Below are positions 14,457-29,031 of a stretch of DNA of 64,000 nt, piece by piece. This DNA comes from an uncultured Bartonella sp. (lineage in GTDB: Bacteria > Pseudomonadota > Alphaproteobacteria > Rhizobiales > Rhizobiaceae). Below the pieces are notes generated by a model. The model was not told the DNA's origin. It did not search any database and saw only the letters and a program-made list of their open reading frames with translations. The stretch's first letter is position 1. Every line of letters starts with the position of its first letter. The position numbers and the translations under genes are program-made. The DNA is taken from assembly GCA_946480935.1 (NCBI GenBank), contig CAMLLT010000001.1, positions 1,889-65,888 of the forward strand, read 5' to 3'.

Positions 14457-15386
14457 TTATTTGTCATTTTGCAATAAAAACCGTGGGGGATAACCATAAT
14501 GCCGGCGGAACAAAGTCGAAAAATGTGCAGGTGTATAACCGATTTTATATGCAATTTGTGAAATGGACATTTTGTTCTCACGCAACATTTGCCGCGCATA
14601 TTCAAGGCGCTGATGTTGGAGAAATTCGACAATTGACATTGAAAAAATTTTTCTGAAACCGGCCGTTAAACGTGAGGTGCTAATGCCAACTTGACGTGAT
14701 AATTGAGCCAAACTAGGTGGTTCGGAGAGTGATGCAATTAAAATATCACGTATATGCATAAAACGTTCTATTTCATGATGGGGAATGAATTTATCATTAT
14801 CAGTCATACTGGATGGTTTTAAAAAAAGATTTTCGAAAGCAAGTGCGAGGAACTCGAAACTTTTCCCTTCAAAGTAAAGCGAGCGTAAACCATTTTCATA
14901 AGAACAATTGTGAATTTCATGGCAAAGTCGTATCAACCTCTCATCAGGCATAAAGCATTGTAGATCGTTATTTTGTTGATCATTGTTCTGCAAAAGTTCA
15001 TGAGTTGTAATATCATGATGTTGTTTTTCCAACTGCAGCAGAGCTTGTTGAGGGATATGTAGGAATGTGCCCCTTATTTCCTCATCAGCAAAGATAGAAT
15101 GGTGCGTCGTCATAGGTCCTGATGCCTTAAGAAAATAACCGAATTGACGGTTGAACGACGAAATGCTCCCTCTGTTGAATTCGAATTTCATTCTTCCCTG
15201 AATAACTCCAACATATAAGCCTGCTTGAGTAGAAGACATCCACTGGGTATCATCGGGCACAACGATCCTGGTCTGGGATAACAACCAGCCTGCATGATTT
15301 TTAAATGATTCATGAATGCAGCCGGTATTTTTTGTAATAAGAGAAAAATTTTGATCTTTAATTTGCAAACTATCGCTGCTCCGCAT
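14457..15386 (-). CDS. AraC-family regulator (PchR/YbtA-like)
   Basis: LYFEGKSFE, PPSLAQLSRQVG, second HTH IAYKIGY..HFSTLFRRHYGYPP. Confidence 0.9.
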   Translation of the reverse strand: MRSSDSLQIKDQNFSLITKNTGCIHESFKNHAGWLLSQTRIVVPDDTQWMSSTQAGLYVGVIQGRMKFEFNRGSISSFNRQFGYFLKASGPMTTHHSIFADEEIRGTFLHIPQQALLQLEKQHHDITTHELLQNNDQQNNDLQCFMPDERLIRLCHEIHNCSYENGLRSLYFEGKSFEFLALAFENLFLKPSSMTDNDKFIPHHEIERFMHIRDILIASLSEPPSLAQLSRQVGISTSRLTAGFRKIFSMSIVEFLQHQRLEYARQMLRENKMSISQIAYKIGYTPAHFSTLFRRHYGYPPRFLLQNDK

Positions 15387-16055: not shown

Positions 16056-16858
16056 GGTGTTGTCAGGCTAACTTTAACTTGCCTTAAAAAGGTAGAGTAG
16101 GGGTGTTTTAAGCAAGCAGAAAATTAAAATTTATGAAGAGCAGTCGTTCGTTTTTCTTTGTAAGCTCGTCTGGAGATGGCGTGCCTTTCATGATTGAAAG
16201 GATTGTAAATTGGTCCTTTTATATCGACAAAATCTTATAAACCCATGAGGCTTTCAAACTTTTAAATTGCTCGTTCTCATTGCCGAAATGCGGTCAAGAA
16301 TTCTCGTATCAATAATTTAATCGTCGGCCTTTTCTTTGGAGTTAAGCTAATTCCATATCCCTAAGTACTGCATGATAAGAGGGAAGTTTATCTGTATTAA
16401 AATTTTTTGGAACTTAACGCTTTTTCAGCGATTTCAAATTGAATTCTTTGCAGAGTTCTTATCATGTTTTTTAGAAACATAGCATTCAAGAATTTCACCT
16501 TTATGATCAACGGATTTTGATAAATAGTGTTTTTCACCGTTGATTTTGACGAGGGCGTCATCCAATTGCCATTACAATTCGAACATTTGTGTCTTCGCTT
16601 TATTTGCATGGATTGAGCAATCGATTTACTAAAGTGCGCAACCCAATAACGAAGGGTTTAGTGACGAATATCGATATCACGATCATGCAGAATATCTTCA
16701 ACTTGATGAAAACTCTGTGCTTATCGCACATAATACATAACTACTAGACGGATAATTTCCGGTGACGTTTTAGAGTATCTGAATGGATTTATCTTGCTCA
16801 TGGCGCAAAATTAACGCGCCACGTGCAAAAGGCAAAGTTAATCTAATCTGATAATGCT
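16056..16858 (-). mobile_element. Decayed IS6-family element, copy 1 (transposase pseudogene, ATG at 16801)
   Basis: Cross-frame translation MSKINPFRYSKTSPEIIRLVVMYYVR*..VEDILHDRDIDIRH*T..WQLDDALVKINGEKHY..VDHKGEILECYVS..TDKLPSY..FNHERH; terminal IRs ggtgttgtcaggctaactt and aagtt(aatct)aatctgataatgct. Confidence 0.88.
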
Positions 16859-17856
16859 GTCATGAACGTCTTAAAAGATCGTTTCAAAAGGTCACCATCA
16901 ATATTGCGTACAATAAAGACCAGTTTTGAAACACCTTCTTCCCACGGCCATTTTTCCAAATGTTCAGGTGGATAAAGGCAATGCTGCACCCCTTGAATAA
17001 GCACCGGCATGTCAAACTCTGCTAAGTTAAGAATGCCTTTGACACGTAGGATATTCTCACCATGCTCTTTCAATAACAAATTAAACCAAATGCCAAAAAC
17101 CAGCCAATCAATTTTGCCTTTATGGGTGACAACAAAGCTTTTTGCTTTTGCGTGAATTTCTTTTTCATTTTCAGCAAAAAAATGCACATTGACTCGCGCC
17201 TTTTTGCCGCTTCGTGCTTTGGCAAAAAGCTCGCTTAAAGTTTGCCTTTCGCTGACCAGTGAAATCTCAGCATCTTCATTCAGCCGCGTTAAAAGCGCTT
17301 CAACATTAAGGCGCGCATCGTCATCGATTCTATCACTTTTGCTGATAAAAAGCTGTTGCGAAGCCACCACTTGCGTCAACCATTCAGGGTGAAGACGATA
17401 TTGCAATTCGGCATTTTCACCATCGATAATCGTGGTTAAACCATTTAAAACAAACGAGCCTTTTAAATGCACATCATCCATGATCGTCGATAAAAGCGAG
17501 GCTGGATTGGCAAGGCCAGTTGTCTCAATCAAGATTTTATCAAAAAACGGAATTTCCTTAGCATTGCGCTTGGCGAGCACGCTAAATAATGTCATCTTCA
17601 AATCAGATAAAACCGCACAACACACGCAGCCATTGGGCATGAGATAGGTATTTTCGGCAACATTTTGCACCAAAATATCATCAATCCCCACTTCCCCCAA
17701 TTCATTAACCAGAATAAGGGTTTTTTCGTCTTGCCCGTTTTTAAGAATATTCTTAATGAAGGTTGTTTTGCCGCTGCCTAAAAAACCCGTGACAATATGA
17801 ACGGGAATTAAATTGGGATTATTTAAATTGGACTGCGTTGATGATTGAGAGGTCAT
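16843..17856 (-). CDS. COG0523/CobW-family metallochaperone GTPase
   Basis: GFLGSGKT, NELGEVGID, GCVCC, IETTGLA, SKSD, CobW_C (LRVKGIL...QGVQH). Confidence 0.93.
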   Translation of the reverse strand: MTSQSSTQSNLNNPNLIPVHIVTGFLGSGKTTFIKNILKNGQDEKTLILVNELGEVGIDDILVQNVAENTYLMPNGCVCCAVLSDLKMTLFSVLAKRNAKEIPFFDKILIETTGLANPASLLSTIMDDVHLKGSFVLNGLTTIIDGENAELQYRLHPEWLTQVVASQQLFISKSDRIDDDARLNVEALLTRLNEDAEISLVSERQTLSELFAKARSGKKARVNVHFFAENEKEIHAKAKSFVVTHKGKIDWLVFGIWFNLLLKEHGENILRVKGILNLAEFDMPVLIQGVQHCLYPPEHLEKWPWEEGVSKLVFIVRNIDGDLLKRSFKTFMTALSD

Positions 17857-18182
17857 ATTTTGTCATGTCCTTCAAATGCGCTATCACCCTCAACAGCAAG
17901 TGCGCTTAGCAATTTCGGGTCAAGCACATCCATCCTTTTGCCTGTCAAAGCAGCAAATTCATCCCATAGAAGATTAAGCCCATTGGCCATGCCTTGCTTG
18001 CCTGTTGGCGTTTGCAAAAGATAATTGACGCCATGCACATCGGACACTTTAACACGGTGATAATGCAACATCTGATTGATGATCTTTATCTTACGAAACC
18101 TATTTTGCCGTTTTGGCAAATCCGATGTGATGTGATCGCTCCACTCTTGTTGTTCTTCAATTAACCCACATAAACCACACAT
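17853..18182 (-). CDS. Small CxxC hypothetical protein (MCGLCG...WSD), coupled to the COG0523 gene
   Basis: ATG 18182, about 109 aa, 4-bp overlap with the GTPase start. Confidence 0.75.
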   Translation of the reverse strand: MCGLCGLIEEQQEWSDHITSDLPKRQNRFRKIKIINQMLHYHRVKVSDVHGVNYLLQTPTGKQGMANGLNLLWDEFAALTGKRMDVLDPKLLSALAVEGDSAFEGHDKI

Positions 18183-18709
18183 GACGCACCCTTTCACACA
18201 CAAAATATGATGAAATAGTTTATCATATTTGCGAGAATTAGGAAGCGAACCTTGTAGAATAAATCTATAACCGAAGTAATTTTGAAAAACGCAAAGTGTC
18301 TTCGATTCAATAAGTTATTTTAAATATAAACAATGCAAAAATACAATATTTATCTATTTTCTGTTTTTAACTTAATTTCATAAATAATTAATTATTCAAT
18401 TATAATATCGTAAAAACAATATAATCAATATTTTTATTTATTGAACAAACGTTAAAATTTTCAATTGCTTTATAAAATAAAAAAAGACGACTTTTGTAAT
18501 CGATAAAGATAGATTTATTCGATTTTTTATTTAAATAGTATTAAAAGAATAATAAATATAATATTATTATATTATAATTGTTATATTCTATATGTTATGT
18601 AATCACGTTTTTAGTATAATAAATATAATTTATTAATAATATTATTAGTATAGCAATAGTTATTAAAACCATCAGGCTTAATTAATTTACAAATTGCGCT
18701 ATTTATTAA

Positions 18710-19190
18710 TTATCCTGTTTGAGTTTTTCCGATTTTTATCTGTTCGTCAAGTAACCGTACTTGCTTTTGTATCGTTTTAAATGAATTTTCAGCTGCTTTT
18801 GTTTGCGCTTCAGCTGCCCCAATCTGCTTCTCTCTGAGAATGTGGGCTTCATCCATTTTCTCGCGTTGCAACTCCATTTTATGATGTTGTGCTTTCATCT
18901 CACTTCTTTGTGCACGTAATTCTAATTGTACACAACTGATTACTTTGAATAAGCATGACGTCAAGTCAAAGAAAAGCAAGCGGAGCAAATAAACCAGCCA
19001 ATGCGTCACCAAAGCCCGAAGCCTTAAAATCAAATAAAGCTGTAAACCAAGCTGTATCGCTTTCATAAAAACCGCCGTCTAAATTATCGACTTGAGCAAC
19101 AGGCTGTTGTATTCTGACAGAAAATATAAGTAAAATAATATAGATGAGAAAACAAATGACCATTATGCATTTTGACCATTTTAAAACCAT
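18710..19190 (-). pseudogene. Broken membrane/coiled-coil hypothetical gene in an AT-rich insert
   Basis: TM segment and GDALAGLFAPLAFL* in one frame; ELRAQRSEMKAQ..MELQRE coiled coil in another. Confidence 0.6.
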
Positions 19191-19489
19191 ATCGGTTTTC
19201 TTTTATGGATCATGAATTTCATCATTTCCAAGTTAATAATTAAACGGTATTAATTGCTATTTTATATTGATAATAATTTTCATTTTATGTGGTGTTGATT
19301 ATATTTTTTAAAAAAAATATAGTGATAAAAACTTCATCTATAGATAAAAATAAACCATTTTGAAGAAAATAGTTGTATTTATCCTAAGTTATCGACCTAA
19401 GTTATTTAAAACACATTTACATAAAGCTAACAAAAAACGCAGGTCATTTAAACCTGCATTTGAAATATGATAGCGTGATAGAGATATGA

Positions 19490-20239
19490 TTATGGCATTA
19501 CATCGCCGCTATTGGGACCTAATGTTTGGCCAACAAATAAATTTCCACCTGGGTCAGAAGCCAACAGAAGAGCTGTTGGGGCAATTTCTTCTGGTTTACC
19601 AAAACGGCCAAGTGGAAGCTCTTTGGCTTTTTCAATTTTCCATTTTTCACTAATACCATCAACCAAAGCAGTTGAAATTGGCCCTGGTGCAATGGCATTG
19701 ACGAGCACATTATCTTTGGACACTTCCAACGCCAAAGATTTTGTAAAGCCGATAACACCAGCTTTTGCCGCGCTATAATGTGCCAATTCTGCACCGCCTT
19801 TAATGCCTAATTGTGAAGCGATATTAATAATACGCCCCCATTTTTGTTTGAGCATAAAAGGTAATGCGCGTTGTGAGGTTAAAAACACGCTAGTTAAATC
19901 CACCTGCAACATCTGATCCCACATCTCTTTTGTCAGATCTGTCACAGGGGCTTGTGTCAGCATGCCAGCATTATTGACCAAAACATCAATGCCTCCATAA
20001 GCATCAATACATTGATCAACTGATTGATGACAGCCTTCAACGGTGGAAATATCAGCAATAACGCTTTTAACATCTTTGCTATGGGCTTGGCAAAGCGCCA
20101 CAGTTTTTGCCACACGCTGCTCATTCATATCGCTGAGCACTAATTTTGTACCCTGTTTGGCAAATTCTAAAGCAATGGCCGAACCAATGCCACCGCCTGC
20201 ACCTGTTACAACAACACGACATTCACTTAATTTTTTCAT
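19490..20239 (-). CDS. SDR oxidoreductase
   Basis: TGAGGGIG, NNAG, YSAAK, C-terminal GQTLGPNSGDVMP. Confidence 0.92.
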   Translation of the reverse strand: MKKLSECRVVVTGAGGGIGSAIALEFAKQGTKLVLSDMNEQRVAKTVALCQAHSKDVKSVIADISTVEGCHQSVDQCIDAYGGIDVLVNNAGMLTQAPVTDLTKEMWDQMLQVDLTSVFLTSQRALPFMLKQKWGRIINIASQLGIKGGAELAHYSAAKAGVIGFTKSLALEVSKDNVLVNAIAPGPISTALVDGISEKWKIEKAKELPLGRFGKPEEIAPTALLLASDPGGNLFVGQTLGPNSGDVMP

Positions 20240-20264
20240 GAGTTATCCTTTTGATTTGAAAGGA

Positions 20265-20292
20265 ATACGCCCCAATATATTGAGGGGCGTAT
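20265..20292. terminator. Intercistronic hairpin
   Basis: atacgcccc-N10-ggggcgtat. Confidence 0.4.
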
Positions 20293-20343
20293 CATTTACT
20301 TTCATTCATCACGCTTTTAATTGAAGCCCTTAATCAGGCTCCA

Positions 20344-21111
20344 TTAGTCAGGCCAACGTATTGTTAGGCCACCATCAACAATAATGCTTTGACCCGTGAC
20401 ATAATTAGCCTTTGAGCTGGTCAAGAACTGAATGACGTCTGCCACTTCTTCTGCCCTACCAACGCGCCCTAATGGAATAACGCGCCCTGCTGCTTTTAAG
20501 CCATCAGGTCCCAAAGAGTTTTTAGCGTCTAAAGATTGCGGCGTTTCAATCAGGCCGGGAATGATGGCATTGCAACGGATTTTGCGTGGAGCTAATTCCA
20601 CCGCAATTGAACGGCAAAGACCGGGCACACCCGATTTAGCCGCCGCATAACTGGTATGATCTTGCCAGCCATAAACACCGCCTGCAATCGATGAAATCGC
20701 CACCATTGCACCGCCATCATTCATATGGCGTGCGGCCGCACGAAAGGTGCGCATCACGCCTGTCAGATCAACATTGATCATCTCACTCCACGCATCGTCA
20801 CTCATTTCAAGCAAAGGTGATTGGCGCAGCAAACCAGCATTGGCCACCGCATAATCCAAGCGGCCAAAATGAACAACGCCTTTTTTCGTGGCTTGCTCAA
20901 CGGACTCGGCATTACCAACATCAAGTGACACCATCAAACATTCACCACCATTTTGCTCAACCAAGTTTTGGGTGATTGTTGGGTCATGGGGGTCTTTTTC
21001 AAAATAACCACCAATGACACGGACATTACTTTTTGCATAAGCAACAGCAAGCGCTTGCCCGATGCCGCTTGCAGCACCTGTAATTAAAGCAACATGAGAT
21101 TTATTTGTCAT
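20344..21111 (-). CDS. SDR oxidoreductase
   Basis: TGAASGIG, ANAG, YAAAK, VDGG. Confidence 0.92.
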   Translation of the reverse strand: MTNKSHVALITGAASGIGQALAVAYAKSNVRVIGGYFEKDPHDPTITQNLVEQNGGECLMVSLDVGNAESVEQATKKGVVHFGRLDYAVANAGLLRQSPLLEMSDDAWSEMINVDLTGVMRTFRAAARHMNDGGAMVAISSIAGGVYGWQDHTSYAAAKSGVPGLCRSIAVELAPRKIRCNAIIPGLIETPQSLDAKNSLGPDGLKAAGRVIPLGRVGRAEEVADVIQFLTSSKANYVTGQSIIVDGGLTIRWPD

Positions 21112-22465
21112 TTAAAGCACCTTCACTGATAATAACGGTTTCTGGCTTGATATGAGGAACGCCAAAAACAACGATCCCAGATAAGAAACAAGGAACGGCA
21201 CCAAACCAAAAAGCAGCCGAAGACCATTCACCACCATTTTTGAGAACGAGGGTAATACCTAAACCTGATAAAATGGCACCAATAGGCCCCATAGCATGAA
21301 TAATAGAACCACCTGTTGCACGAATATGGGTCGGGAATGATTCACCCATAAAGAACATCATTGCTGAATATGGGCCTGTTAAAAAGAACAAACCAACACT
21401 GTATAAAGCAATAACAATATAGAGATTATTTGGCGCATAAATCATCAACGAAAAGGCAATGCCGCCACAAATCCAGCCAATTGCCACAGTTGTACGCCGA
21501 CCAAGTCTGTCGCCCACCCAACCATGAACCAAATAACCAGCAAATCCAACGAAGTTAGATAAGATCAAAATGATCAATGAGTTTTCAAAAGAGATTTTAT
21601 GGATATTCACAATAACAGATGTACCCAAAACACTGAAAACCTGGATAGATGCCCAGTTGAACAAGACAGCTAAACTCAAAACAACCGTAGAGCGTAATGC
21701 TTTGCCCTGAAAAGCTAATTTGATGCTGGTTTGGTGTTGCACAACACCAAAACGGTTAGCAATCGTTGTTGCATCACTATCTTTACCTGCTTTTTTCAAT
21801 TGAGAAATTTTTTGCATAATTTCAAATTGGGGGCTTTCTTTGAGTTTTCTGGCAAAAAAAGCAACTAAAAAACAAGGAATAGCAGCAAAAAGAAAACATC
21901 CCTGCCAGCCAATCCAAGGTAGCAAAATTGCTGTTAATGTAGCAGCAAGAAGCGCCCCCACTGGCCAACCACTTTGCACCAATGAAAAGATAAAACCTTT
22001 GCGTTGTTGAAATTTTGCACTTTTTGACATTGAGTACATTTCTGTCAAATAGGCAGCATTCACACCTTCTTCGGCATAACCAAGCCCAGCAACAGAACGC
22101 ACAACAACAATAGCACTTTTACCAACGCCAGCAAGCAATGTCGTTAAGGCTGAAGCAATACCAGCACCAGCAATGGTCACAATAATACCTTTACGCCGCC
22201 CAATACGGTCAACAATTGGCCCAATAGCAAAAGCGACAATCACGCCGCCAATTGCAATCATCGTTGCCATTTCAGTTTGTTCAGCTAAATTCCAATTAAA
22301 ATGATCGCCCATAACAGGCAGAAGCATTCCAAAAAGAATAAAGTCATAAACCGCAAATACCCAAGCGAAAAAAGCAATCCACGAGGCATAATTGATATCT
22401 TTTTGAGTAACGGGCGCGGGCTTCCAAGTCGATACTTTATCCGCATTTTCTTCTATTTTATTCAT
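21101..22465 (-). CDS. MFS transporter (small organic solute)
   Basis: DRIGRRKG and DRLGRR motif A, ESFPTHIRATG, about 12 TM segments. Confidence 0.9.
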   Translation of the reverse strand: MNKIEENADKVSTWKPAPVTQKDINYASWIAFFAWVFAVYDFILFGMLLPVMGDHFNWNLAEQTEMATMIAIGGVIVAFAIGPIVDRIGRRKGIIVTIAGAGIASALTTLLAGVGKSAIVVVRSVAGLGYAEEGVNAAYLTEMYSMSKSAKFQQRKGFIFSLVQSGWPVGALLAATLTAILLPWIGWQGCFLFAAIPCFLVAFFARKLKESPQFEIMQKISQLKKAGKDSDATTIANRFGVVQHQTSIKLAFQGKALRSTVVLSLAVLFNWASIQVFSVLGTSVIVNIHKISFENSLIILILSNFVGFAGYLVHGWVGDRLGRRTTVAIGWICGGIAFSLMIYAPNNLYIVIALYSVGLFFLTGPYSAMMFFMGESFPTHIRATGGSIIHAMGPIGAILSGLGITLVLKNGGEWSSAAFWFGAVPCFLSGIVVFGVPHIKPETVIISEGALNDK

Positions 22466-22708
22466 ATTGTCGGTCCTAATCTAGGATCAGTATGTATTCA
22501 CGTTAAAACAAGCCCAACAAACAAAAAATTTAAAGGCTATTTTTAAATTCCAAATAAGAGAAAATTCATTCGATATTCGCACTAAAAAAAAGCCTGAAAA
22601 TTTATATTTCTCAAGCTTTTCTGATCTTTAAAGATTCTCAATACTTAGAATTGGAATTTGGTAACTTTGTTAAAGTTAGTGAATCCTGATCCTAATAGTA
22701 AATATGTT

Positions 22709-23590
22709 CTATTTTTTACGGGGGAAACGCTTAGCAAAATCGGTGGCGATTTCATCCATCGTGACAAATTTCACACCTTCATGTTTTTGGAAATGCTCAA
22801 TCAAGCGTTCCAACATCAAAAGCACTTGCGCACGGCCAGACACATCAGGATGAATAGTGATTGGGAAAACAGCATAATCCATTTCACGATAGACCCAATC
22901 AAACTGATCACGCCACATTTGCTCAATATCACGAGGGTTTACAAAGCCATGGCTATTGGGTGATTTTTTGATAAACATCAACGGTGGTAGATCATCCAGA
23001 TACCAATTGGCTGGAATTTCAATTAAATCAGTTTCTACACCACGCACAAGCGGTTTCATCCATGTGTCAGGATGTTGGCTATAATCAATTTTTGTCCATT
23101 TATCACCCACACGCACATAATAAGGCGTATAATCATTATGCATCAAGCTGTGGTCATATTTAATGCCTTTTTTGAGCAATAATTCATTGGTGACATTGCT
23201 AAATTCCCACCAAGGCGCAACGTAACCAGTTGGTCTTTTACCAGAAAGCTTGGTGAGTAAATCAATGGTTTTATCCAAAATTGCTTCTTCTTGCTCACGT
23301 GTCATGGCAATCGGGTTTTCATGGCTATAACCATGCAAGCCAATTTCATGGCCAGCTTTTGCAACGGCTTGCATTTGCTCAGGGAATGTCTCAGCTGAAT
23401 GGCCTGGAATAAACCATGTTGCCTGAAGCTTATATTTATCAAAAAGCTTCAAAAGGCGCATAACGCCAACTTCACCAGCAAAAAGGCCACGTGAAATATC
23501 ATCTGGTGAATCCTCACCACCGTATGACCCAAGCCAACCAGCAACAGCATCAACATCAACACCGATTGAAACAAAAATTTCTTTAGCCAT
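22709..23590 (-). CDS. CE4/polysaccharide-deacetylase-fold metalloenzyme, H. pylori PgdA(HP0310)/PuuE-like subfamily
   Basis: [52 protein letters not shown]; 293 aa, no signal peptide. Confidence 0.9.
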
Positions 23591-23643
23591 TTTTTCCTCC
23601 TCTAAGATAATTTTTATTATGGCAAAGTGCTAAATGATCGACA

Positions 23644-24987
23644 TCATGCATGCAAAATATCTTCAATTTGCATCGCAGCGTGTAAAAGGCTTTCATCATG
23701 CCCATTCACACCTGATATCAATATTCCAGTAGGGAGCCCATTTTTACCCTGACCATTAGGGAGTGTAATAGCGGGCATATCCAAGAAACTTCCCGGCATT
23801 GTAAGCCTTAGAGTTTTTGAATTTGTTTTAACGAATAAATCAGAATCCGCCTCAAGTGGCGCAAGCAATGGCGCTGTATGCGCAACCGTGGGGGTAAGCA
23901 GAAAGCCGTTGCCCAATTCATTTTTTATGTGCTGTTTGAGCAAACGCGCTTGCTCATAAAGATGAATTTGCGTGCTTGCCAAAATGTCTTTAGCTTTCAT
24001 CAAACGTTGATATACACGCTGGTCCATAAGTTTTACTTTATCGCTTTTAAGCAATTTTTGATGCAATGTATAAGCCTCAGCCGCACCAAGCCAATTGCCC
24101 GCATCAATATAAGATAAAGCTTGATGGAAAGCGTTGATCTTTTTAAAGACCACCTTAACTCCAGCATCCTGAAAGGCCTTTACAGCTTGCGTAAAATTAG
24201 CTGTCACATCATCCTGAATATCAGGATGGTCAAGTATATCAAAATCCACCACCAAGTGGAAATTGCCTTTATCGGCATAATTCTTATTGTTAAAGTCTAT
24301 ATGATAGTTTTGTGATAAAATCAGCCGATCAAGAAAAAAGCAATCTTTGACATTATGCGCAAGTGGACCAATAGTATCAAGTGAAGATGCGAGCGGAAAA
24401 ACTCCTTGTTGTGAATAGCGGTTGATGCTTGGACGATAGCCCACCAAGCCATTAAAAGCCGCGGGAATACGAATAGAGCCTGCCGTATCTGTCCCCATTG
24501 AAAAAGGGACAATTTGTTTAGCAACAGATACAGCTGCTCCTGATGATGAACCACCAGGAGCGTGAAGTTCATTAACCGCGTTGGGTGGTGTACCAAAAGC
24601 AGGGTTAAGACCTAAACCTGAATAGGCAAATTCGCTTAAATTTGTCTTACCAATATTGATCATGCCAAGTTGTGTAAGTTTGGCGACCAAATTCACATCT
24701 TGAGTTGCCGGTGCATTGTCTTTGCGTGTTGCTGATCCAGCTGTTGTGATTGTGCCTGCAACATCAAACAAATCTTTCCAAGCGATAGGCACTCCATCAA
24801 ATGAGGAGAGTGGCATTTTTGCTTTCCACCTTTGCTTTGATGCTTCTGCTTCACGATAAGCACGATCAAGACAGGTAGAAATAAAAATATATTGTGTCTT
24901 ATTTAAACGCTCAACAAGCTCATCAAGAATAATAACAGGGTTTGTTATTCCATTGGCAAATTGTGTCGATAATAATTCTGCATTCAT
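23644..24987 (-). CDS. Amidase-signature family amidase
   Basis: GVPIAWKD, GKTN.SEFA, PGGSSSG, GTDTAGSIRIPA. Confidence 0.93.
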   Translation of the reverse strand: MNAELLSTQFANGITNPVIILDELVERLNKTQYIFISTCLDRAYREAEASKQRWKAKMPLSSFDGVPIAWKDLFDVAGTITTAGSATRKDNAPATQDVNLVAKLTQLGMINIGKTNLSEFAYSGLGLNPAFGTPPNAVNELHAPGGSSSGAAVSVAKQIVPFSMGTDTAGSIRIPAAFNGLVGYRPSINRYSQQGVFPLASSLDTIGPLAHNVKDCFFLDRLILSQNYHIDFNNKNYADKGNFHLVVDFDILDHPDIQDDVTANFTQAVKAFQDAGVKVVFKKINAFHQALSYIDAGNWLGAAEAYTLHQKLLKSDKVKLMDQRVYQRLMKAKDILASTQIHLYEQARLLKQHIKNELGNGFLLTPTVAHTAPLLAPLEADSDLFVKTNSKTLRLTMPGSFLDMPAITLPNGQGKNGLPTGILISGVNGHDESLLHAAMQIEDILHA

Positions 24988-25073: not shown

Positions 25074-25871
25074 GGCTTTATAAGGCTAACTCCAACTTGT
25101 CTTAAAAAGGTAGAGTAGGGGTTTTTAAGCAAGCAGAAAAATGAAATTTATGAAGAGCAGTCGTTCGTTTTTCTTTGCAAGCTTGTCTGGAGATGGCGTG
25201 CCTTTCTTGATTGAAAGGATTGTAAATTGGTCCTTTTATATCGACAAAATCTCATAAACCCATGAGGCTTTCAAACTTTTAAATTGCTTGTTCTCATTGC
25301 CGAAATGCGGTCAAGAATTCTCGTATGAATAATTTAATTGTCGGCCTTTTCTTTGGAGTTAAGCTAATTCCATATCCCTAAGTACTGCTTGATAAGAGGG
25401 AAGTTTATCTGTAAAAAAACTCTTTGGAACTTAACGCTTTTTCAGTGATTTCAAATTGAATTCTTTGCAGAGTTCTTGTCATGTTTTTTAGAAACATAAC
25501 ATTCAAGAATTTCACCATTATGATCAACGGATTTTGATAAATAGTGTTTTTCACCGTTGATTTTGACGAGGGCGTCATCCAATTGCCATTACAATTCGAA
25601 CATTTGTGTCTTCGCTTTATTTGCATGGATTGAGCAATCGATTTACTAAAGTGCGCAACCCAATAACGAAGGGTTTAGTGACGAATATCGATATCACGAT
25701 CATGCAGAATATCTTCAACTTGATGAAAACTTTGTGCTTATCGCACATAATACATAACCGCTAGACAGATAATTTCGGGTGACGTTTTAGAATATTTGAA
25801 TAGATTGATCTTGCTCATGGCGCAAATTAACGCGCCATGGTTGAAACATAAAATTTAATCTGACAAGATCC
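25074..25871 (-). mobile_element. Decayed IS6-family element, copy 2 (direct repeat of copy 1; ATG at 25818)
   Basis: Near-identical to 16056-16858 at about 9017-bp offset; right IR aatttaatctgacaagatc. Confidence 0.88.
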
Positions 25872-27104
25872 TTAAATCGCTTGCCTTTTTACAAAATGAC
25901 CGCCTTTCATAATGATTGGCATATGCTTACCTTGTCCTGTTAAGAGTGAAATATCTTTTAATGGGTTGCCATCAATAACCAAAAGGTCAGCATAAGCATT
26001 ATTGGACAAAGTTCCAACTTTACCTTCTAAGCGCAATAATTTGGCTGCTAAAGATGTTGCGCTTTCAATCACTTTATGGTTTTTCAAAACACGTGCACGA
26101 ATGATAAATTCTTCTGATTGATGAATTTGCATACCACCTAGCAAGTCGCTCCCATAGGCCATAGGTAAACCGGCATTTTGCATAATTTCTAATGAATTCA
26201 TGCCGGCAAGACGCACATCATCCACCTTTGCTATCGAGGCAGCAGGGAGACCCATTGAAGGACCGTCACTTGCAAGTTTGTCATAGGTGACAAGTGTTGG
26301 AACGGCAATGCACCCTTTTTCAACGGCTAATTTTGCTGTTGCTTCATCAATCAAGTTACAATGTTCTAAAGATTTTACACCACATTCAATAGCACGTCGA
26401 ATAGCCTGCTTGGTATAAAGATGTGCTGAAACATAGGTTCCAGCATTTTGTGCTTCTTCAACAATTGCTTTTAACTCATCTATAGAAAAACCTAAGAAAT
26501 GAATAGGATCTGTGGGAGAAGATACACCACCATTTGCCATGACTTTAATAAAATCAACGCCACTTTTTATTTCTTCTCTGGCAGCACGACGAACTTCGTC
26601 GACACCATCACAGACCCGTCCGAGTGCCCCCAGAGGAATGGCATATTTTGGCGTTGGATTGTCATTGTAGGGGCCACGATAATCTGTGTGCCCACCAGTT
26701 TGGCATAGCGCGTTGCCGCTGATAACAAGACGCGGGGTTGGTGTCATTGCTTCTGCAGCCGCAATACGTAAAGCCGATGTCGCACCACCGACATCTCTTA
26801 CCGTAGTAAAACCACGGTGGATCATGTCATGCATGATTTTAAGAGAGCGTACAGTTACAATCTCGTCAGGTAAGCGACTATTGGCACCAAGGTCTGCCAT
26901 GGCAGCAATGACATGCACATGGGCATCAATGAGGCCGGGCATGAGGGTCTTTCCCTTTAGATCGATGATTTCTGCAGACGTACTGGAAACAGTTTTACCG
27001 CTTTCTTTAATCAGACCATTTTCAACAAGAAGGTTTGTTTCTTCTGATTGTTCTGGTGATGAACCATCAACTAAATGGGCATTTTTAAATAGAATATTCG
27101 ACAT
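25872..27104 (-). CDS. Metal-dependent amidohydrolase (prolidase/carboxypeptidase-like subgroup)
   Basis: PGLIDAHVH, GFTTVRDVGG, carboxylated-Lys region DFIKVMANGG, AH, EH, YGSD; ATG 27104 after AGAGGA. Confidence 0.9.
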   Translation of the reverse strand: MSNILFKNAHLVDGSSPEQSEETNLLVENGLIKESGKTVSSTSAEIIDLKGKTLMPGLIDAHVHVIAAMADLGANSRLPDEIVTVRSLKIMHDMIHRGFTTVRDVGGATSALRIAAAEAMTPTPRLVISGNALCQTGGHTDYRGPYNDNPTPKYAIPLGALGRVCDGVDEVRRAAREEIKSGVDFIKVMANGGVSSPTDPIHFLGFSIDELKAIVEEAQNAGTYVSAHLYTKQAIRRAIECGVKSLEHCNLIDEATAKLAVEKGCIAVPTLVTYDKLASDGPSMGLPAASIAKVDDVRLAGMNSLEIMQNAGLPMAYGSDLLGGMQIHQSEEFIIRARVLKNHKVIESATSLAAKLLRLEGKVGTLSNNAYADLLVIDGNPLKDISLLTGQGKHMPIIMKGGHFVKRQAI

Positions 27105-27151
27105 AAATTCCTCTCTTCTTCTTTTTTGGTTATTGTTTATTAACAAAATAA

Positions 27152-27643
27152 TTAAGCGTTTTTTGGTTGTATAATTTCTTGTCGTTCTATTAAAAAGGCT
27201 GGAACAAGATAAGCGGCAGCTTCCAAGGCGGCAGTAAGATGTTGTTCATTATAATGATATTCCTGATCCAACATGCTAATGACACCCAGAGTTTGCCCAT
27301 CATAACGAACAGGCACACTTATCACAGAGCCTAACCCCAAACTAAAAATTAGCTCGTGATCAAAGAAAGCCCATTCAATAGATTGATGATCTTTGCCAAG
27401 AAAAGGTTGCCCTTTTTTTATAAGGAGTTCGCCCCAGTCTGTTGGGCCCATATGTTTACGTCCTAATACGGGATAAGCATCAGGCATATTAGAATAAAGG
27501 CGTGCAACATTTTGTCCATCTACAAGCAAATAGGTTAAAAGTTTGCACCCGCATTTTTGCGTTATATAGTGCTCCAGGGCTTTAAATAATGGCATAGGTT
27601 GATTTGGCTCAGACCAAGCAATTGTAAGGTCTTTAATATTCAT
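27152..27643 (-). CDS. Stand-alone GAF-domain protein
   Basis: RLYSNMPDAYPVLGRK, FFDHELIFSLGLGSVISVPV..DGQTLGVISML. Confidence 0.8.
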   Translation of the reverse strand: MNIKDLTIAWSEPNQPMPLFKALEHYITQKCGCKLLTYLLVDGQNVARLYSNMPDAYPVLGRKHMGPTDWGELLIKKGQPFLGKDHQSIEWAFFDHELIFSLGLGSVISVPVRYDGQTLGVISMLDQEYHYNEQHLTAALEAAAYLVPAFLIERQEIIQPKNA

Positions 27644-29031
27644 TATGCACCTTCATTTTGACGGTTATCATTCAAGAATTCGGCGTCTTCAATTTCCTCC
27701 AAGGAGCGTCCTTTTGTTGGAACACCCAAGAATATAACTGCGAGTGCACCCAGGATTAATATTGTTGTTGTCATGCCGAATACGCCAAACAAACCGCCAA
27801 TTGGATATATATAGCCGACAAGAGTTGGTGCAGAAATAGCACCAATACGGCCAATTGCTGAAGCAAGACCAACGCCTGTTGCACGTACCCTTGTTGGAAA
27901 AACTTCAGGTGTGTAGGCATATTCACCTGCATTCACCCCATTAATAAAGAAGGATAAAATAATACTCATCGCAATAATCATGACATCTGTTTGTGCCAAT
28001 GCGAGCCCGATACCTGACAGGGCAGCTATAAGCATATAAACGACAATCGTATATTGACGTCCCCATTTTTCACAAAGCCAGGCAGCAGAAAAATATCCTG
28101 GGATCTGCGCGACATAAATCCAAATAGAGACAGAAAAGCTTTGAGTGATTGTCATACCACGATCAACTAACAGGCTTGGTATCCATATGAAAAAAGCATA
28201 GGTACAAAAAATCACCGACAACCATAATGCCCATGTCATGATAGTGACGCGACGTAACTGTGGAGAAAATAGAATTTTAAAATTATCAATGAAAGATTGT
28301 GGAGCCGGTGCTTGGATGTGTTTTACATCTTGCGGTGTTGTTAACTCAATTCCATGGTCAGTATAGTATTTTTTTTCAATTATCGTAACGATCGCATTCG
28401 CTTCGTCTTTACGCCCACGGCTTTCAAGCCAGCGAGGAGATTCATAAAGAGAGCGGCGCCACCACAAAACAAAGACAACTGGCAAAGCACAAATCACAAG
28501 TGCGTAGCGCCAGCCGTCTTCATTAATTGGTACAATAAAACGACCAATAAGGGCTGCAACAACAAAACCAAATGAAAAGAAACCAGCAAGTGAAGCAGTA
28601 AAGGAACCGCGCTTTTTAGAACTGATAAATTCAGACAAAAATGGTGCAATAATTGCTGCTTCTGCGCCCATACCCACACCGCCTAGAACTCGAAGTGCAA
28701 AGAAACCATGCCAGTCTTGAATAAAAGCGGAGGCTAAAGAACAAATACAAAATGCGGCTAGTGCCCACATCATAACATTGCGGCGGCCATAGCGATCACC
28801 GATCGTTCCTGCAATTAATGCGCCAAAGAAAAATCCGACATAAGTACTGCTACCTAATAAACCTGTTTGAATTGAATCAAGAGCCCATTGTTGTCGTAAG
28901 GCAGGTAAAATAAAAGCAACGATGGCAGCGTCGACTGCCTCGAACATATAACCAACCCCTCCCATTAGGAGAATTTTAAATTGAAAACGCCCAAAAGGAA
29001 GGCGTTCTAATCGCGCAGAAACTGATGACAT
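27643..29031 (-). CDS. MFS transporter (SV2/aromatic-acid/niacin-like)
   Basis: ARLERLP, GDRYGRR, ESPRWL, PEVFPTRVRATG, TKGRSLEEI. Confidence 0.92.
   Translation of the reverse strand: MSSVSARLERLPFGRFQFKILLMGGVGYMFEAVDAAIVAFILPALRQQWALDSIQTGLLGSSTYVGFFFGALIAGTIGDRYGRRNVMMWALAAFCICSLASAFIQDWHGFFALRVLGGVGMGAEAAIIAPFLSEFISSKKRGSFTASLAGFFSFGFVVAALIGRFIVPINEDGWRYALVICALPVVFVLWWRRSLYESPRWLESRGRKDEANAIVTIIEKKYYTDHGIELTTPQDVKHIQAPAPQSFIDNFKILFSPQLRRVTIMTWALWLSVIFCTYAFFIWIPSLLVDRGMTITQSFSVSIWIYVAQIPGYFSAAWLCEKWGRQYTIVVYMLIAALSGIGLALAQTDVMIIAMSIILSFFINGVNAGEYAYTPEVFPTRVRATGVGLASAIGRIGAISAPTLVGYIYPIGGLFGVFGMTTTILILGALAVIFLGVPTKGRSLEEIEDAEFLNDNRQNEGA

Follow-up and report, generated by a model that had tools for sequence, protein, structure and literature searches.

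The question raised by this locus is what a CE4 enzyme resembling HP0310, a protein annotated and studied in Helicobacter pylori as a peptidoglycan deacetylase, does in a cluster of amidase, transporter, oxidoreductase and putative metallochaperone genes. The locus lies in a 64 000-nucleotide stretch of DNA (hereafter the window) from an uncultured Bartonella sp. (GenBank assembly GCA_946480935.1, contig CAMLLT010000001.1, positions 1889 to 65 888). Seven intact, co-oriented genes on the minus strand span positions 16843-24987. The cluster probably serves to break down a small cyclic imide or a hydroxylated lactam in the cytoplasm as a source of nitrogen, with a dedicated metal-delivery pair. 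More tentatively, this pair, a small protein beginning with MCxxCG and a COG0523 GTPase, may be specific to HP0310-type imidases as clients and obligatory for the maturation of their buried metal site. The gene identities, active-site residues, linkage and co-distribution reported below were observed directly. The genes, all of which had been listed in an initial annotation made from the letters of the window, are as follows.

23644-24987, minus strand: amidase-signature enzyme, 447 amino acids (aa); PF01425, E = 4.8e-79
22709-23590, minus strand: HP0310/HpPgdA-type CE4 metalloenzyme of the cyclic imide hydrolase family, 293 aa; 3QBU match
21101-22465, minus strand: major facilitator superfamily (MFS) transporter, presumed substrate importer, 454 aa; PF07690 and PF00083
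20344-21111, minus strand: short-chain dehydrogenase/reductase (SDR) A, oxidoreductase, 255 aa; PF13561 and PF00106
19490-20239, minus strand: SDR B, oxidoreductase, 249 aa; PF00106 and PF13561
17853-18182, minus strand: small MCGLCG protein, proposed metal 'hook' partner of the GTPase, 109 aa
16843-17856, minus strand: COG0523 G3E GTPase, proposed metal insertase of the imidase, 337 aa; PF02492 and PF07683

The CE4 enzyme and its conserved neighbourhood

The CE4 protein was matched over its full length to HP0310 in the PDB (entry 3QBU; E = 1.9e-161, residues 1-293 against 34-326, about 80% identity), a resemblance that the initial annotation had noted correctly. With residue roles taken from PMC3084791, the metal ligands D14, H86 and H90, the catalytic residues D12 and H247 and the lid tryptophans W127 and W128 were all found to be kept. 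The N-terminus bears D12 and D14 and is part of the catalytic fold. By inspection, no signal-like hydrophobic segment (h-region) was seen in it, in agreement with the earlier remark that the protein has no export signal. Some 293-aa Klebsiella members of the family carry the database name 'Cyclic imide hydrolase', and CDD entry cd10938 (CE4_HpPgdA_like) is labelled 'proposed as cyclic imidase'. The family has already been assigned as cyclic imide hydrolase (EC 3.5.2.16); imide hydrolysis itself is known from homologues and is predicted for the window protein by analogy.

Homologues of the CE4 protein are 77-90% identical across the Alpha-, Beta- and Gammaproteobacteria and Helicobacter-like contigs, and its neighbours are much more divergent: orthologues of the amidase are 39-60% identical to the window protein, those of the GTPase 32-53% and those of the small protein 25-60%. 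To judge from these identities, the conservation of the imidase points to a strong constraint on the enzyme and not merely to a recent transfer of the whole cluster. Such a constraint is unusually strong for a peripheral catabolic enzyme.

The chemistry of the family has been worked out elsewhere. Bacterial imidase genes had been cloned by 2002-2007 (PMC1940265). HxnM of Aspergillus nidulans, whose nearest structure is 3QBU, is a cyclic imide hydrolase that carries the cd10938 domain and is more than 60% identical to the Pseudomonas putida YZ-26 imidase (AAY98498). The fungal enzyme opens 3-hydroxypiperidine-2,6-dione to alpha-hydroxyglutaramate; this imide is made from a dihydroxy-lactam by the SDR HxnW, and ammonia is then freed by HxnN, an amidase-signature enzyme (PMC9304392, PMC8478523). 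The order SDR, imidase, amidase was demonstrated in the fungus by knockouts and metabolite identification, as hydroxylactam to hydroxy-imide to hydroxy-glutaramate to hydroxyglutarate and ammonia (PMC9304392).

The other enzymes of the window were assigned to families. The amidase carries the GGSSSG signature at residue 145, which places it in the amidase signature family, and scores 556.8 bits against NF004766, just below the cut-off of 559. Comparison with solved structures returned only allophanate-hydrolase-like matches for the amidase and only generic FabG-like matches for the two SDRs, with no clue to the substrate in either case. The NCBIfam model closest to the MFS protein is that of the aromatic acid/H+ symporter family, with a score far under the cut-off.

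Linkage was then counted in 80 genomic loci of alpha-, beta- and gammaproteobacteria, each with a close homologue of the imidase (80-88% identity) as its anchor, in Acinetobacter, Pseudomonas, Paraburkholderia, Caballeronia, Delftia, Pantoea, Erwinia, Raoultella, Halomonas, Marinomonas, Moraxella, Rhizobium, Agrobacterium, Ensifer, Shinella, Aureimonas, Thioclava and other genera. The window proteins were used as tblastn queries within 6 kb of the imidase, with the following counts.

COG0523 GTPase beside the imidase: 76/80 loci
Small protein beside the imidase: 75/80 loci
Two SDRs near the imidase: 69/80 loci
Amidase near the imidase: 64/80 loci
MFS transporter near the imidase, in the same position: 42/80 loci

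Most of the missing neighbours fall at contig ends. Over the counts made, the small protein is linked in 74-75 loci and the amidase in 63-64. The gene order is far beyond chance and recurs in dozens of genera. Three layouts were distinguished. In type A, found in gamma- and betaproteobacteria and in the window, the order is amidase, imidase, MFS, SDR, SDR, small protein and GTPase; orthologues of SDR A keep their position there at 60-75% identity, and those of SDR B are 65-73% identical. In type B, the layout of Rhizobiales and Rhodobacterales, an ATP-binding cassette (ABC) transporter operon encloses the imidase, small protein and GTPase, the SDRs lying upstream and the amidase downstream. 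In alphaproteobacterial loci, the ABC system takes the place of the MFS transporter, a non-orthologous replacement at a constant position. Type C loci (Moraxella and some alphaproteobacteria) hold only a hydrolase, the imidase, the small protein and the GTPase.

Two further genes belong to most loci and have no counterpart in the window cluster. A GntR/FCD regulator was found in 65 of the 80 by an all-against-all census of open reading frames (ORFs); it is about 370 aa long and has two GntR-type helix-turn-helix stretches besides FCD (for example, L002:18123-19229 and L008:7273-8400, both on the minus strand). Directly after the GTPase, 66 of the 80 encode an SBP_bac_8-like protein of 395-405 aa without a signal peptide (L002:16905-18095, L008:15100-16284, L015:12351-13568). 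This protein matched no NCBIfam family, apart from a faint PotD-like match, and may be a cytoplasmic ligand-binding component of the system.

Co-distribution was examined in 401 genomes sampled evenly across the phylum, using a profile of the small protein and the imidase as query. The small protein occurred in seven genomes, exactly those with an imidase at 63-100% identity, and the two genes were adjacent in each. Eleven genomes with only distant CE4 relatives (at most 37% identity) lacked it. A second sample, 300 genomes of another class, held a single carrier; the distribution of the module is therefore patchy. The initial annotation had proposed an analysis of this kind and had stated that a lack of conserved linkage across taxa would refute its idea; this condition did not refute it. 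Linkage is kept in the 80 loci and in the 401-genome sample, and the CE4 enzyme, the small cysteine protein and the COG0523 GTPase recur together across taxa.

The comparison was extended to Helicobacter by means of the published HP0310 forward primer (PMC3688963), an exact match to which retrieved two Helicobacter-like contigs. On each lie genes for a C-N hydrolase (292-294 aa), an imidase sharing 77% identity with that of the window, a small-protein homologue (122-125 aa) and a COG0523 GTPase; on one of them (L092), an MFS gene follows on the opposite strand. In H. cetorum, HP0309 (C-N hydrolase type), HP0311 (hypothetical) and HP0312 (ATP-binding) are missing together (PMC3866246). The contigs and this report agree with the neighbourhood that the initial annotation had given for H. 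pylori. The second hydrolase has been replaced non-orthologously between these loci (amidase-signature against nitrilase superfamily), which argues for a required second step of amide hydrolysis.

In the proposed route, the compound would be imported by the MFS protein and its oxidation state adjusted by one or both NAD(P)-dependent SDRs, on the model of the fungal HxnW, which converts hydroxylactam to imide; alternatively, an SDR could oxidize the hydroxy-acid product. The HP0310-type imidase would open the ring to a half-amide, and the amidase-signature enzyme, a candidate 'half-amidase', would act on the ring-opened monoamide to give ammonia and a dicarboxylate. For the imidase activity and for the order SDR, imidase, amidase, this proposal draws on published work on homologues. 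The small protein and the GTPase would have no catabolic role and would load the buried Asp-His-His site of the imidase tetramer. Import, redox adjustment and double amide hydrolysis of a cyclic imide is the best-supported function; the initial annotation had suggested such a route for a small (cyclic) amide/imide or N-acyl compound.

The small protein, the GTPase and the rival explanations

The start of the small protein was set at the ATG at 18182 (MCGLCG..., 109 aa) and not at the TTG at 18203, on the basis of an alignment with 24 orthologues. Residues M1, C2, C5, G6, W14, R25, G61, L72, W73, D85 and L87 are invariant in 19 orthologues. An exhaustive HMMER search gave a family of 586 clusters at 50% identity, 365 of them with E <= 1e-10, and nearly all members are 95-125 aa long. 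The exact MCxxCG start is present in 110 of the 150 best representatives; position 7 of these 110 is L, V, I, A or another residue and never Cys. Two representatives of 268-275 aa have no Pfam domain in their extension. In the window, the gene overlaps the GTPase gene by 4 nt, and it overlaps or abuts it in L002, L008 and L015 as well.

The small protein matched no family in Pfam or NCBIfam and no PDB entry by sequence. Its AlphaFold model has a pLDDT of 79 (above 90 in the core), with a disordered N-terminal tail and a confidently modelled core of one helix, a three-strand sheet and two helices. The best Foldseek match of this model in the PDB was not significant (E = 0.34). VIA-align wide gave a best Z of 4.7, and frataxin/CyaY came at Z 3.6-4.2, all within the stated noise of the tool. 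No fold was therefore assigned. In the ESM Atlas, only 'hypothetical protein' clusters were retrieved, the top one from Campylobacterota.

The GTPase matched PF02492 (cobW; E = 2e-39) and PF07683 (CobW_C; E = 5.5e-19), and its Walker A motif GFLGSGKT at residue 24 and CVCC at residue 77 place it in COG0523. It falls under the cut-offs of the models for characterized subfamilies: 86.6 bits against ZigA (cut-off 600), 108.3 against CobW (332.1) and 150.7 against the YjiA-type PRK11537 (361). The host genome holds four further CobW/G3E-family genes (contigs C16, C136, C8 and C295).

The amidase, the C-N hydrolase and the SDRs belong to metal-free families. The imidase is the likely client of the pair, since it is the sole metalloenzyme that always adjoins it. 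Cys2, Cys5 and Gly6 of the small protein stand at the extreme N-terminus, in the register of the N-terminal metal site of HypB, where the CxxCGC sequence coordinates Ni(II) at picomolar affinity via the N-terminal amine and thiolates (PMC12284835). Bacterial COG0523 proteins other than CobW and Nha3, the nitrile hydratase activator, have hardly any known clients, according to a 2024 review (PMC11672702). The pair is evidently separable from the enzyme genes.

Two other readings of the catabolic enzymes were weighed. The same architecture could serve a cyclic ureide (hydantoin-, dihydropyrimidine- or allantoin-like), with a carbamoylase or an allophanate-type enzyme as second hydrolase in a hydantoinase/carbamoylase-like pathway. 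PuuE allantoinase is indeed the nearest characterized structural relative of the CE4 protein, the best solved relative of the amidase is the allophanate hydrolase 4CP8 (E = 4.8e-43) and HP0309 is annotated as an N-carbamoyl-D-amino-acid amidohydrolase. However, HP0310 was inactive on allantoin (PMC3084791), the window protein keeps the Asp-His-His triad lacking in PuuE and reaches only 82.5 bits against the PuuE model TIGR03212 (cut-off 424.6), which sets it outside PuuE, and the characterized close homologues, the P. putida imidase and HxnM, act on imides; a ureide substrate is thus unlikely. It is less likely still that the CE4 protein is a genuine peptidoglycan N-deacetylase (PgdA) with neighbours that are unrelated or engaged in cell-wall recycling. 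The H. pylori literature cited in PMC3084791 and PMC3688963 gives HP0310 a part in deacetylating peptidoglycan, on genetic grounds, and in resistance to lysozyme, and acetyl-esterase and deacetylase activities were measured for it on chitin, chitosan, acetyl-xylan and p-nitrophenyl acetate (PMC3688963). These activities conflict with the results of Shaik et al. (2011; PMC3084791) and keep a small probability on the deacetylase reading. Shaik et al. described HP0310 as tetrameric, with its pocket occluded, a signal peptide lacking and PuuE allantoinase as nearest relative, found it inactive on N-acetylglucosamine (GlcNAc), chitotriose, acetyl-polyamines and acetyl-dipeptides, and argued for a cytoplasmic small-molecule substrate after a comparison of gene contexts anchored on HP0310 and HP0312. 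The window protein likewise fails the tests for a canonical peptidoglycan GlcNAc deacetylase, both in envelope export, its N-terminus belonging to the catalytic fold, and in model score, with 43.4 bits against NF045821 (cut-off 400), 21.7 against NF045820 (800) and 18.9 against NF045822 (400). Its homologues are constantly linked to a cytoplasmic amidase, SDRs and importers in many non-pathogens.

For the pair, the rival to metal delivery is that it serves zinc homeostasis in general, or acts in regulation or assembly (for example, in tetramer formation), and is merely co-transcribed with the imidase. The small protein has two cysteines only, and its fold matches are uninformative. The P. putida imidase is reportedly active without partners; work of Shi et al. 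from 2007 is said to have found it active when expressed alone in E. coli, in which case the imidase would not strictly need the pair where metal is abundant. Most of the bacterial COG0523 proteins studied belong to Zur regulons, and their clients are rarely known (PMC11672702). Against such a general or accessory role stand the strict co-distribution with this type of imidase (7/7 genomes against 0/394), the adjacency to it in 75-76 of the 80 loci, the four other CobW-family genes that are free for general duties, the low score against ZigA and the N-terminal cysteine register of a known metal site. We consider it improbable.

Several points nevertheless count against the imide route with its metal-delivery pair, among them the H. 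pylori genetics, the polysaccharide activities of HP0310 and the reported activity of the P. putida imidase alone. The tie between pair and imidase is drawn from genome comparison, the small protein lacks the third cysteine (Cys7) of HypB and, in a weak search, no fused forms of it were found among longer proteins. The window protein was related to AAY98498 only by way of HxnM and database names. SDR steps do not occur everywhere, as the minimal loci of Moraxella and the Helicobacter-like contigs have no SDRs. The exact substrate is one that we infer, as are the order and roles of the two SDRs, the metal used and a physical hand-off of metal from the small protein and GTPase to the imidase.

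The copy in the window

The window copy has all seven genes intact but is truncated, lacking the regulator and the SBP_bac_8-like gene, and has been captured between two dead IS6 copies; an AT-rich insertion separates SDR B from the small-protein gene. These features are as follows.

25083-25840, minus strand: degraded IS6-family element, right copy, in direct orientation relative to the left copy
18183-19489, no strand: AT-rich 1.3-kb insertion, GC 0.28-0.29
16065-16824, minus strand: left copy of the degraded IS6-family element, sharing 95.5% identity with the right copy

The host genome is about 2.6 Mb in size, 85.7% complete and in 313 contigs; family-mates in the sample have 6-7 Mb and a genus-mate 1.5 Mb. 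In this 85.7% complete assembly, neither the GntR/FCD regulator nor the SBP_bac_8-like gene was found elsewhere.

The two relics are direct repeats that bracket the cluster, as the initial annotation had proposed, the left one beginning 19 nt past the GTPase stop. Both hold remnants of an IS6-type transposase on the minus strand, including a DDE-core segment of the WQLDDALVKINGEKHYL type, broken by stops in all frames. The stops fall at the same positions in both relics, which must therefore have been duplicated or homogenized after inactivation. Two IS6 copies in direct orientation around a cargo are the arrangement of a compound (pseudo-compound) transposon. Neither relic has an intact transposase, and no 8-bp target-site duplication was seen: the outer bases differ (GTGTTGTC against TTGAAACA), the ends of the element being imprecisely defined. 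No third copy was present in the host genome, and the relic matched nothing among plasmids. A plasmid origin of the cluster was rejected, as no near-identical plasmid was found, only Burkholderia CE4 genes at 73%.

The insertion has a GC content well below that of its surroundings (about 0.41) and occurs once in the host genome. It is foreign and splits the chaperone pair from the enzyme genes; in Acinetobacter bereziniae, which lacks it, SDR B and the small-protein gene are 17 bp apart. The same junction is interrupted in the Helicobacter-like contig L092, where the imidase and small-protein genes are separated by an N6/N4 DNA methylase gene and a second ORF, both on the opposite strand (L092:5008-6841). 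Inside the insertion, a strong terminator-like hairpin (19461-19435, minus strand) stands just past SDR B, and promoter-like sites lie upstream of the small-protein gene. Two ORFs on the minus strand, 18710-19066 (118 aa) and 18966-19190 (74 aa), have hydrophobic N-termini, one with a coiled-coil-like tail; neither matched a family in Pfam, NCBIfam or PHROGs.

Just beyond the right relic, genes for an Amidohydro_1 enzyme (424 aa), a GAF-domain protein (163 aa) and a second MFS protein (462 aa) lie on the minus strand at 25872-29031 and could be a separate C-N hydrolase module. An AraC-family gene (14457-15386) lies just beyond the left relic.

Relation to known systems

The window copy itself, truncated and captured by insertion sequences, is ordinary; what matters is the module that it represents. 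A COG0523 subfamily and an unnamed small-protein family are bound by strict genomic linkage to one enzyme type and thus offer a directly testable COG0523 client. If the pair does mature the imidase, this would be the first case of a CE4-fold hydrolase served by a G3E metallochaperone system, and the GTPase would join the very few COG0523 proteins of bacteria that have a defined client. The failed search for a substrate of recombinant HP0310 could then stem in part from missing partners or wrong metalation, and pgdA mutants of H. pylori would owe their peptidoglycan phenotype to an indirect effect. HP0310, whose structure is solved and whose substrate has been uncertain since 2011, becomes testable as a cytoplasmic imidase working with HP0309, HP0311 and HP0312. 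With the operon present in Pseudomonas, Klebsiella, Pantoea, Rhizobium, Agrobacterium, Paraburkholderia, Acinetobacter, Moraxella and Helicobacter-like genomes, nitrogen salvage by this unnamed route would be common.

Searches of the literature for the small protein, this COG0523 subfamily or a bacterial imidase operon returned nothing, and those for COG0523 together with polysaccharide deacetylase returned nothing relevant; HP0309 and HP0311 were found in gene lists only. One of the closest known systems is the HP0309-HP0313 locus of H. pylori. It shares the orthologous core of second hydrolase, imidase (77-80%), small MCxxCG-type protein and COG0523 GTPase, with an MFS gene nearby. It differs in that its second hydrolase is a C-N hydrolase of the nitrilase superfamily and in that it has no SDRs.

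PuuE allantoinase shares with the CE4 protein a tetrameric CE4 fold, a small occluded pocket and a small cyclic C-N substrate but, unlike the window protein, is metal-independent, with Glu-His-Trp in place of the Asp-His-His triad. The 'imidase' BpIH, considered as another relative, was rejected as PuuE-type and outside the HP0310-type family.

Like HypB, CobW, Nha3, ZigA and ZNG1, the GTPase is a P-loop G3E protein with a CxCC site, encoded beside its presumed client. The flexible N-terminal Cys2/Cys5/Gly6 motif of the small protein resembles the high-affinity site of HypB, but it is carried by a separate protein of about 100 aa. The GTPase also stands apart from the ZigA, CobW and YjiA types in model score, and the proposed client is a CE4-fold hydrolase, which has been reported for no G3E protein.

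The lower nicotinate pathway of A. nidulans clusters the same three enzyme classes, as HxnW, HxnM and HxnN. Unlike the window cluster, it is eukaryotic and belongs to a nicotinate regulon of 11 genes; the hydroxylases of that regulon have no counterpart in the cluster, and neither a COG0523 protein nor a small cysteine protein is reported there. The bacterial entry substrate is probably different, since there are two SDRs and no pyridine-ring hydroxylases nearby.

Among bacteria, the imidase/half-amidase pathway of Blastobacter sp. A17p-4 is said to convert an imide by way of the half-amide to a dicarboxylate and ammonia, the same two-step logic as in the window. The P. putida YZ-26 imidase (AAY98498) would be of the same family, as judged from the identity with HxnM, from 3QBU and from the 293-aa proteins named as cyclic imide hydrolases. 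As far as we found, published work on the P. putida and Blastobacter imidases concerned single enzymes, and to these the operon type represented by the window adds a transporter, two SDRs, the MCxxCG protein, the COG0523 GTPase, a GntR regulator and the cytoplasmic SBP-like protein. The initial annotation overstated the case in calling the whole an undescribed, new system: the imidase family is known from P. putida, HxnM and cd10938, the fungal SDR-imidase-amidase sequence has been demonstrated and PMC3084791 is a precedent. Because the enzyme family and the chemistry of homologues are already characterized, the catabolic core is of a known kind; as far as searched, the undescribed parts are the dedicated pair of small protein and COG0523 GTPase, the cytoplasmic SBP-like protein and the bacterial operon as a whole.

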